The notes under the pieces are model-generated. The model was not told the DNA's origin. It saw only the letters and a program-made list of their open reading frames with translations, and did no database searches. A program made the translations under genes and the position numbers. From contig JAICYS010000003.1 in assembly GCA_025934105.1 (NCBI GenBank), positions 1 to 61,360 of the forward strand: DNA of 61,360 nucleotides. The letters are read 5' to 3'. Numbering within the stretch: the stretch's first letter is position 1; the number at the start of each line of letters is the position of its first letter. Shown here piece after piece: positions 41,967-43,360 of this stretch. Source of the DNA: Myxococcota bacterium. GTDB taxonomy: Bacteria > Myxococcota_A > Polyangia > Fen-1088.

Positions 41967-42908
41967 TCACCCGCGCCGCCCGCGCGCCGGGCCGGCGATG
42001 TAGCGTTCGCCGGTGTCGGGCAGGACCGTGACGACGGTTCGGCCGGGGCCGAGGGTGCTCGCGAGGTCGAGGGCGACGCGGACGGCGGCGCCGGCGGAGA
42101 TGCCGACCAGCAGGCCCTCGCGGCGAGCCAGCTCGAGGCGGGTGGCCTCGGCCTCCTCTTCGGTGACGCGGCGGACCTCGGTGAGGAGCGCCCGGTCGAG
42201 GATGTCGGGCACGAAGCCGGCGCCGATGCCCTGGATGCGGTGCGGGCCGGGCGAGCCGCCGGACAGCACGGCGCTGTTGGCAGGTTCGACGCCGACCAGG
42301 GCGACGTCGGCGCGCCGCGCGCGGAGCGCCTGCCCGATGCCGGTGATGGTGCCGCCGGTGCCGACGCCGGCCACGAAGGCGTCGGGGGCGCGGCCGCCGA
42401 GCTGCGCCAGGATCTCGGGTCCGGTGGTGGTCCGATGCACGACCACGTTCACCGGGTTCTTGAACTGCTGGGGCATGAACGCGTTCGGGTTGGTCGCGGC
42501 GATCGCCGCCGCCTTCTCGACGGCGCCGCGCATGACCCGCTCGGCCGGCGTCAGGTGCAGCTCGGCGCCGTACGCGCGCAGAAGCTCCATCCGCTCGGGC
42601 GACATGTTCTCGGGCATGGTCAAGATCAACCGATAGCCCTTCACCGCCGCCACCAGCGCCAACCCGATGCCGGTGTTCCCCGAGGTCGCCTCGACCAGGA
42701 TCGACCTGCCGGGGATGAGCCGCCCTTCTCGCTCGGCGGCCTCGACCATCGCCAGGGCGGTGCGGTCCTTCACCGAACCGCCGGGGTTGAACTGCTCGCA
42801 CTTGCAGAGCACCTGGGCCGAGCCGGCGGCCGGCAGCCGCCGCAACCGCACCAGCGGCGTGCGGCCGATGCGGGCCAGGATGTCGTCGTCGATCCCGGGC
42901 GCGTCCAT
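41967..42908 (-). CDS. cysK: Cysteine synthase A
   Basis: IGRTPLV, NPGGSVKDR, ATSGNTG, GVGTGGT, HRIQGIG, PDTGERY. Confidence 0.95.
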   Translation of the reverse strand: MDAPGIDDDILARIGRTPLVRLRRLPAAGSAQVLCKCEQFNPGGSVKDRTALAMVEAAEREGRLIPGRSILVEATSGNTGIGLALVAAVKGYRLILTMPENMSPERMELLRAYGAELHLTPAERVMRGAVEKAAAIAATNPNAFMPQQFKNPVNVVVHRTTTGPEILAQLGGRAPDAFVAGVGTGGTITGIGQALRARRADVALVGVEPANSAVLSGGSPGPHRIQGIGAGFVPDILDRALLTEVRRVTEEEAEATRLELARREGLLVGISAGAAVRVALDLASTLGPGRTVVTVLPDTGERYIAGPARGRRG

Positions 42909-43360
42909 CAGATGAAGTACATCGTGGCCGGCACGACGGCCCGACGCACGCCCGCCGATTCGGCGCGGGCGACGAAATCGGCCAGCTTGGTCCGTTCGAG
43001 CACCTCGATGAGGCGCGTGCCCACCTCGCCCCAGACCAGCGACGGGATGTCGCCCGGGCCGGGCTCGCCGCCCACGCCCAGCAGGTCCTCCAGCGGACCG
43101 CGCACGGCCCGCAGGATGTCCGCCATCGAGATCTCGGCCGCCGGCCGCGCCAGCGCGTAACCACCGTGCGGTCCTCGCCGCGCCTCGACCAGCCCCGCCC
43201 GCCGCAAGTCCTGCAGGATCTGCTCGAGGAACTTGAACGGGATGCCTTGCCGCTCGGCGATCTCCTTGGCCTGGGCCGCCTGGCCGGGACCGGCGCCGGC
43301 GTGAAACGCCAGGTCGTAGAGCGCCCGGATGGCGTAGCGGGTGCGGATGGTGAGCCTCAA
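42908..43360 (-). CDS. Rrf2-family regulator, CymR-like
   Basis: RYAIRAL, FLEQIL, RGPHGGY. No Cys residues. C-terminus ATMYFI. Confidence 0.88.
   Translation of the reverse strand: MRLTIRTRYAIRALYDLAFHAGAGPGQAAQAKEIAERQGIPFKFLEQILQDLRRAGLVEARRGPHGGYALARPAAEISMADILRAVRGPLEDLLGVGGEPGPGDIPSLVWGEVGTRLIEVLERTKLADFVARAESAGVRRAVVPATMYFI

Follow-up and report, generated by a model that had tools for sequence, protein, structure and literature searches.

A CymR-like Rrf2 regulator with a putative CysK-docking tail, encoded next to cysK in a sulfate-assimilation operon of an uncultured Polyangia bacterium

In the portion of the Staphylococcus aureus and Bacillus subtilis literature drawn on here, the C-terminal tail of the regulator CymR docks in the enzyme CysK, CysK stabilises CymR on DNA and O-acetylserine (OAS) acts as the signal; the original publications on CymR (Even 2006; Tanous 2008; Shepard 2011) are represented here through the papers that cite them. 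According to the sections of a 2024 preprint used for this comparison, SaCysK binds the decapeptide EDLDGYMFYI of S. aureus CymR at 25 nM; in the crystal structure of SaCysK with the CymR peptide, the OAS site is occupied by the carboxylate of the terminal Ile, and the Met at position -3 forms a hydrophobic plug. In the literature searched, this 'trigger enzyme' switch was shown to have been studied in Bacillales only, being elsewhere only a guess, and no CymR-like system of this kind outside Bacillales is described among the literature matches listed; one Rhodococcus paper names a 'CymR homologue' by BLAST. CysK is also the partner of CysE, for which the tails GDGI, DFMI and DYII are given in the excerpts of the literature considered here. 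In the same kind of excerpt, Neisseria gonorrhoeae CysE is described as possessing a C-terminal Ile, yet forming no complex with CysK in vitro, indicating that such a residue is insufficient for CysK binding.

The window analysed here, which is the whole 61,360-nucleotide stretch of DNA under study, derives from an uncultured bacterium of the Polyangia (Myxococcota). Its minus strand carries a six-gene operon, the first gene of which (~47051..47665) encodes a siroheme synthase N-terminal domain protein (NAD_binding_7 and Sirohm_synth_M). This gene is followed by cobA/cysG-C, specifying uroporphyrinogen-III C-methyltransferase (46275..~47054, start codon uncertain; TP_methylase; NF004790 at 263 bits, cut-off 198), and by a gene for a sir/nirA-type ferredoxin sulfite reductase (44524..46278), which was recognised by Pfam NIR_SIR and NIR_SIR_ferr and for which every NCBIfam equivalog score was below its cut-off. 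Next in order are cysA (43357..44424), encoding a sulfate ABC-transporter ATPase of 355 aa with the C-terminus D-Y-S-I, rrf2a (42911..43360; ORF including stop 42908..43360), encoding an Rrf2-family regulator of 150 aa with a TTG start and no Cys, and cysK (41967..42908), encoding an O-acetylserine sulfhydrylase A of 313 aa. Divergent from this operon, on the plus strand, lies cysH (47825..48559), which encodes a PAPS/APS reductase (Pfam PAPS_reduct, 3.6e-42). The gene order, together with the divergent cysH, was found to be kept in 11 relatives from the genus.

On the minus strand, the rrf2a/cysK junction reads TGATG (TGA at 42910-42908, ATG at 42908-42906), and the TTG start of rrf2a overlaps the cysA stop codon (ATTTGA, 43357-43360); owing to these overlaps at both ends of rrf2a, cysA, rrf2 and cysK form a gapless chain. 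The initial annotation of this DNA had described a Cys-free Rrf2 protein ending in ATMYFI, a TGA overlapping the cysK ATG, a position of both genes at the end of a siroheme/sulfite reductase/cysA operon, a divergent intergenic region at 47666-47824 and a system outside Firmicutes, and each of these statements was borne out. The translation holds zero Cys and ends in ...VVPATMYFI, the two codons have one base in common at 42908, the gene chain is annotated as such by Pfam and NCBIfam, the intergenic region lies between cysH and the first operon gene, and the host is a member of the Polyangia. A soil metatranscriptome, the one considered here, contained only short contigs that are 90-95% like the window and come from relatives; such contigs cannot show transcripts.

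We consider it probable that Rrf2a is a CymR-like repressor with a flexible M-Y-F-I tail (codons 42911..42922, minus strand, conserved across homologues) that would enter the catalytic pocket of CysK, the product of the coupled next gene, a reading which draws on the sequence and on analogy with CymR. By the same analogy, the Rrf2a-CysK pair is probably the means by which the cell monitors how much cysteine is available. With abundant cysteine and little OAS, the Rrf2-CysK complex would sit on DNA and hold down the sulfur-assimilation genes, including those of its own operon (cysG-cobA-sir-cysA-rrf2a-cysK). Accumulating OAS would then compete for the CysK pocket, upon which the tail would be displaced, the complex would loosen and the genes would be derepressed. 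For this organism, we infer the binding of Rrf2a to CysK, the repression, the response to OAS and the operator.

Conservation of the tail among relatives had been set beforehand as a condition for this reading. MYFI was found to end all 30 homologues (41-99% identity) encoded by 30 loci among 61 related genomes. A scan with one genome per species yielded 80 more loci, from Polyangia, Haliangium, Kofleriaceae, Nannocystineae, Sorangium, Polyangium and Bradymonadia, along with one Deferrisomatales MAG and one Desulfuromonadales MAG. Since several of the resulting 110 loci come from the same genomes, counts were based on the 95 distinct proteins, which are mostly from Myxococcota. A C-terminal Ile was present in 94 of these 95 proteins, so that the tail is indeed kept, with the proviso that the related loci are kin and such counts consequently overstate independent support. 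The tails of the 94 Ile-ending homologues were MYFI (65), VYVI (11), MYYI (5), VYSI (4), SYVI (3) and TYVI (2), with MYVI, AYAI, VYAI and DYVI occurring in one homologue each. The sole exception to the terminal Ile, L086, had the appearance of an Rrf2-CysK fusion of 574 aa; this candidate was rejected, as the frame reads on past ...YVYSI and cysK is in another frame, probably because of an assembly error.

In an alignment of 38 sequences, Y148 and I150 were shown to be invariant down to 41% identity, and the linker of 10-15 residues ahead of the tail to vary in both length and sequence. The AF2 model of Rrf2a (pLDDT 89.7) consists of a winged helix-turn-helix and a long dimerisation helix, with helices at residues 5-21, 31-38 and 42-54, a hairpin at 58-70 and the long helix at 105-123. 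Residues 136-150 are modelled as coil, and the last ten residues exhibit a mean pLDDT of 58, compared with 87-97 for most of the fold. Taken together, alignment and model depict MYFI as a putative short docking motif at the end of a flexible tether, and the conservation of the tail is, judging by these comparisons, not a matter of chance.

The initial annotation had also pointed to cysK as the neighbour of rrf2a, and this pairing was found to be both conserved and translationally coupled. In 75 of the 95 distinct homologues, cysK lies directly 3' of rrf2 on the same strand, commonly with an overlap or a gap of 0-15 nt. No cysK was present downstream in 19 of the 95 homologues, each with at least 1 kb of flanking DNA; these belong mostly to a Cys-containing 'GYMYFI' group, with a few from the window's own genus, and the ORFs picked as their neighbours gave almost no Pfam hits.

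The CysK protein of the window was confirmed as a member of the cysK equivalog TIGR01139 (391.4 bits, cut-off 350.95), and its top PDB matches are CysK enzymes, including the S. aureus-like chains 8t2c/8srt (1e-96). The peptide-contact residues of SaCysK were mapped onto this protein via the phmmer alignment to 8t2c/8srt, with an inferred numbering offset, and 16 of the 25 mapped positions were identical. Among these are the four carboxylate ligands T75, N78, T79 and Q148, as well as F149, M126, S212, Q226, G227, A230 and F232. The T-S-G-N-T loop and the Q-Q-F segment are present (T75, S76, N78, T79, Q147, Q148 and F149) and were shown to be (near-)invariant in the neighbouring CysK proteins. 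Since these pocket residues are common to CysK enzymes as a whole, they would indicate competence for a tail of this type and no specificity for MYFI. In the six sequences with S, T or D at position -3 of the tail, the CysK position equivalent to SaCysK A123 was observed to be Q; the six are close kin, and the covariation of tail and pocket is for that reason a hint only.

The pairing and the tail could also be explained if Rrf2a were a local transcription factor for sulfur genes that makes no contact with CysK, with cysK a co-regulated neighbour and the tail meeting another partner or the body of Rrf2a itself, an explanation which we regard as unlikely. When 1.84 billion cluster representatives were searched with a profile, 34311 hits were obtained, and 102 of the best 150 end in Ile with an aromatic residue at -2. 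The tail therefore spans a very large Rrf2 group that includes Cys-rich members, as fits a role apart from CysK, and since many of the tail-bearing relatives contain at least three Cys, it is not tied to the Cys-free state. The 19 homologues that lack an adjacent cysK point the same way, as do a second tail-bearing Rrf2 protein of this genome (Rrf2b, discussed below), whose gene adjoins no cysK, and the fact that CysK binding is not guaranteed by a C-terminal Ile. Against this explanation, M-[YF]-x-I is, in the part of the structural report drawn on here, the very motif crystallised in the CysK pocket, cysK follows rrf2 in 75 of 95 cases with codons often overlapping, and the literature searched on Rrf2 proteins gives such tails no other role.

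A second alternative follows from the family placement of Rrf2a. Its membership of the Rrf2 family is indicated by Pfam PF02082 (Rrf2; 104 bits, cut-off 30; 6.7e-30) and NCBIfam TIGR00738 (rrf2_super; 100.5 bits, cut-off 73.3), and an Atlas search with Rrf2a returned no annotation more specific than 'Rrf2'. The protein scored 72.3 bits against the CymR equivalog NF047409, under the cut-off of 195, and 86.9 and 76.3 bits against the IscR models TIGR02010 (cut-off 207.55) and NF008110 (cut-off 275), respectively; because all of these scores are far below the cut-offs, Rrf2a was placed in neither the IscR nor the CymR family. Among its PDB relatives, IscR-type structures (4cic and 4hf1) rank before CymR (3t8r and 2y75). 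Rrf2a might thus be an apo-IscR-like protein, free of both ligand and partner, that sets a basal level of operon expression, its lack of Cys reflecting a loss of sensing. The slightly higher scores of the IscR models relative to the CymR model and the IscR-type nature of the nearest solved structures would be in keeping with this possibility, which we nevertheless judge improbable: without a partner, the invariance of a four-residue tail behind a variable linker is difficult to account for, and the scores, being far below the cut-offs for IscR and CymR alike, place the protein in neither family.

Some proteases are tail-specific and can recognise a non-polar C-terminus, and on this general ground the hydrophobic C-terminus of Rrf2a might be a degradation tag conferring a short half-life on the regulator, which appears very improbable given that the strict Y at -2 and terminal I, the pairing with cysK and the match to the CymR tail would all be left unexplained.

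Docking of the Rrf2a tail in CysK, the reading preferred here, raises the question of how closely the protein is related to CymR itself. Among the matches listed, the representative nearest to the CymR model, P0254, is part of a group of Firmicutes proteins from Clostridia, Limnochordia, Moorella and others. Its relatives end in Ile in 114 of 119 cases (MYHI in 54, MYYI in 35 and MWHI in 14), from which it follows that M-Y-x-I is common to Firmicutes CymR-like proteins and the myxobacterial clade. Of the 114 related representatives scanned with the CymR equivalog, the best among the matches listed reached 148 bits (cut-off 195). In a FastTree phylogeny of 237 rows with tails trimmed, which has weak deep support and only one outgroup and for which 45 of the 119 Firmicutes sequences were drawn at random, the myxobacterial proteins group together in a separate clade that excludes the sampled Firmicutes proteins. 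Based on its CymR score, its IscR-type nearest structures and this separate clade, Rrf2a was set outside the CymR equivalog, and it is filed here as a protein that would work like CymR within a wider tail-bearing Rrf2 group.

Conserved blocks in the divergent intergenic region were identified by alignment of 12 cysH-cysG intergenic regions. A generic consensus promoter scan of 41800-48000 found none, and it is therefore from conservation that we infer a cysG-operon promoter at 47723..47751 on the minus strand, with a -35 element at 47746-47751, a 17-nt spacer and a -10 element at 47723-47728; the TTGA of the -35 element is invariant in all 12 regions and the TA..T of the -10 element is kept. 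The AT-rich Box A (47664..47690, minus strand), a candidate operator or leader element, abuts the first operon start codon and was found in 12 of the 12 aligned regions. Further upstream, the alignment revealed Box B, a partly conserved AT-rich block at ~47762..47792 (strand not set). By eye, and with no statistic attached, Box B resembles Box A in most members of the genus. A matrix search of the 6-Mb genome with Box A matched Box A alone, and a 9-mer common to both boxes occurs 17 times in the genome, compared with ~12 expected from a rough composition estimate, with no clear link between these occurrences and sulfur genes. In the window's genus, the rrf2-cysK pair is without a promoter of its own.

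Free-standing rrf2-cysK loci of the Haliangium/Kofleriaceae type were shown to carry a 17-bp palindrome, ATTTCCCGATGGGAAAT, and close variants thereof, 18-44 nt before rrf2, this range being defined by 11 sites with at most three mismatches. The position of the palindrome would fit autoregulation of these loci. In Polyangiales-type loci, a half-site, TTTCCGATG, is located within the spacer of a TTGACA promoter. The core of the palindrome has two exact matches in the genomes of five relatives, one each in two genomes, and both precede rrf2-cysK. Nine inspected sites with one mismatch to the core were considered as operators and rejected, as all lie under long open frames with a GC content of 0.57-0.71. 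In the genome studied here, the palindrome of the relatives has 17 sites at three mismatches and none better, compared with 1-10 per 2 Mb in shuffled sequence (2-3 mismatches). Given that the palindrome is not beyond chance in this genome and that Box A is unique in it, no regulon was drawn. The region 47666-47824, with its blocks conserved across the genus, is a reasonable candidate for the site of control.

Tails of this type are not confined to Rrf2a. The CysA protein of the window, which scored 351.1 bits against TIGR00968 (cut-off 342.75), exactly at the cut-off of 29.7 for the CysA_C_terminal domain and 331 bits against the E. coli-type equivalog NF008105, under its cut-off of 502, ends in EDYSI. 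The motif DY[SQ]I terminates all 18 distinct CysA proteins of the loci. Twenty more CysA homologues were compared from elsewhere in the class, representing other genera and families; 18 of them carry D[YF]xI or NYVI at the C-terminus, and the two most distant lack such a tail. The second Rrf2 protein of the genome, Rrf2b (contig C167), has four Cys and the C-terminus TYSI; its gene heads a porin-sbp-cysT-cysW sulfate-uptake operon without an ATPase gene, an arrangement kept in 13 of 13 complete relatives with the tails [TSA]YSI. The third Rrf2 protein (contig C80) has no such tail, and the best candidate for CysE, the serine acetyltransferase, scored 160 bits (cut-off 210) and has the C-terminus GIGT, with no Ile. 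By their C-termini, Rrf2a, Rrf2b and CysA are accordingly three proteins with a CysK-type tail, and the CysE candidate is not among them.

These C-termini are signs that CysK may act as a wider docking hub. It is conceivable, if on balance doubtful, that the pocket of Polyangia CysK is claimed in turn by Rrf2a (MYFI), by the Fe-S-type Rrf2b (TYSI) and by CysA (DYSI), that the serine acetyltransferase has lost its docking tail, and that OAS, on emptying the pocket, would simultaneously switch transcription and the transport of sulfate. In plants, a sulfate transporter contacts cysteine synthase, and the hub, if true, would be a bacterial counterpart of this contact. In this way, a transporter ATPase and another regulator join the candidate users of the CysK pocket, and wider use of the pocket would alter the picture of sulfate-assimilation control outside the enterobacterial CysB model.

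The comparison of related loci gives good support to a probable CymR-type sensor that pairs regulator with enzyme in a host outside Firmicutes and is hard-wired to cysK. Translational coupling of the two genes extends through an entire bacterial class, which renders the proposed mechanism directly testable using two small, soluble proteins and a peptide of four residues.

Among the described systems, IscR resembles Rrf2a in its fold and N-terminal DNA-binding domain and, of the named families, provides the best PDB and NCBIfam scores. It differs in that Rrf2a reaches only 87 bits against a cut-off of 207 and is encoded in a sulfate-assimilation rather than an isc/suf context; moreover, Rrf2a, being without any cysteine, cannot hold an Fe-S cluster, unlike IscR. 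RisR of Myxococcus xanthus is likewise an Rrf2 regulator of a Myxococcota host, but in the part of the RisR paper considered here it is described as having three Cys ligands, binding a cluster and controlling isc and suf, i.e. Fe-S homeostasis, and that part makes zero mentions of cysK. In CysE-CysK, as proposed for Rrf2a, the partner inserts its terminal Ile into the active site of CysK, where OAS competes with it, and the CysE tails DYII and DFMI resemble the CysA tails of the loci studied here (DYSI in the window). The difference from CysE-CysK is that the proposed docking partner in the present case is a DNA-binding protein, and perhaps CysA, in place of serine acetyltransferase.

The closest likeness is to the CymR-CysK system of B. 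subtilis and S. aureus, with which Rrf2a shares a tail of the form M-aromatic-aromatic-I (MYFI in Rrf2a as compared with YMFYI in S. aureus CymR), an Rrf2 fold, a probable functional link to CysK and cysteine synthesis, and the lack of an Fe-S cysteine triad. The initial annotation had given MFYI as the ending of B. subtilis CymR, and the comparison made here bears this ending out for the S. aureus protein. By the family model, Rrf2a is no orthologue of CymR, as its score lies under the NF047409 cut-off (72 versus 195 bits). The cymR gene of B. subtilis adjoins a cysteine desulfurase gene and is not known to adjoin cysK. A Clostridium perfringens homologue of cymR has also been described beside a cysteine desulfurase gene. 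The system in the window differs from CymR-CysK in that rrf2a is translationally coupled to cysK, is located inside a sulfate-reduction operon and belongs to a Myxococcota host.

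The sulfate-transporter ATPase gene cysA, located on the reverse strand immediately upstream of rrf2 (43357-44424), encodes a protein with the C-terminus D-Y-S-I (codons at 43360-43371), which represents a CysE-like, putative CysK-docking tail. This tail was conserved in all 18 distinct CysA sequences of the examined loci; among 20 additional homologues from across the class, it was present in 18. Docking of CysA to CysK was not reported in those portions of the literature that were consulted.

The gap between sir and cysA (44425-44523) spans 99 nt in the window, compared with 17-72 nt in relatives, and contains a GC-rich inverted repeat without a T-run. 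At the downstream end of the operon, cysK is convergent with a forward-strand gene (40291-41868) for a glycoside hydrolase family 12 protein, which carries a long N-terminal region rich in Gly and Ser.

A second tail-bearing Rrf2 protein, containing four Cys residues and ending in TYSI, is encoded outside the window on another contig of the same genome (C167:2583-3050). Its gene, the promoter and leader of which are strongly conserved, is the first of an operon with genes for a porin and a sulfate-binding protein and cysT/cysW-like genes, from which an ATPase gene is absent. Both this arrangement and the [TSA]YSI tail of the regulator were observed in 13/13 complete relatives.

Free-standing rrf2-cysK pairs are preceded, 18-44 nt 5' of rrf2, by a 17-bp palindrome of the ATTTCCCGATGGGAAAT type (loci L026, L047, L050, L055, L058-L063, L066, L068 and L071), and tandem repeats of the half-site ATTCCCG were present in L047, L049 and L050. 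In a single nanopore-type MAG (L086:4001-5722), the Rrf2 frame continues past ...YVYSI to yield 574 aa; cysK occupies a different frame, and the read-through is probably due to an indel error and not to an Rrf2-CysK fusion.

Many related loci harbour a CysK paralogue (37-41%) approximately 1.3-2.7 kb downstream of rrf2. The genome under study itself encodes a second cysK-like gene (69% identical) on contig C400 (L132:5449-10248). Downstream of it lie a ThiF-family gene and genes for two further PALP enzymes, an arrangement reminiscent of systems for sulfur-carrier-dependent cysteine synthesis. The top serine acetyltransferase candidate of this genome (C165:about 1070-1975) scored 160 bits with the cysE model, below the cut-off of 210, and terminates in GIGT, lacking the C-terminal Ile that is used in the cysteine synthase complex.
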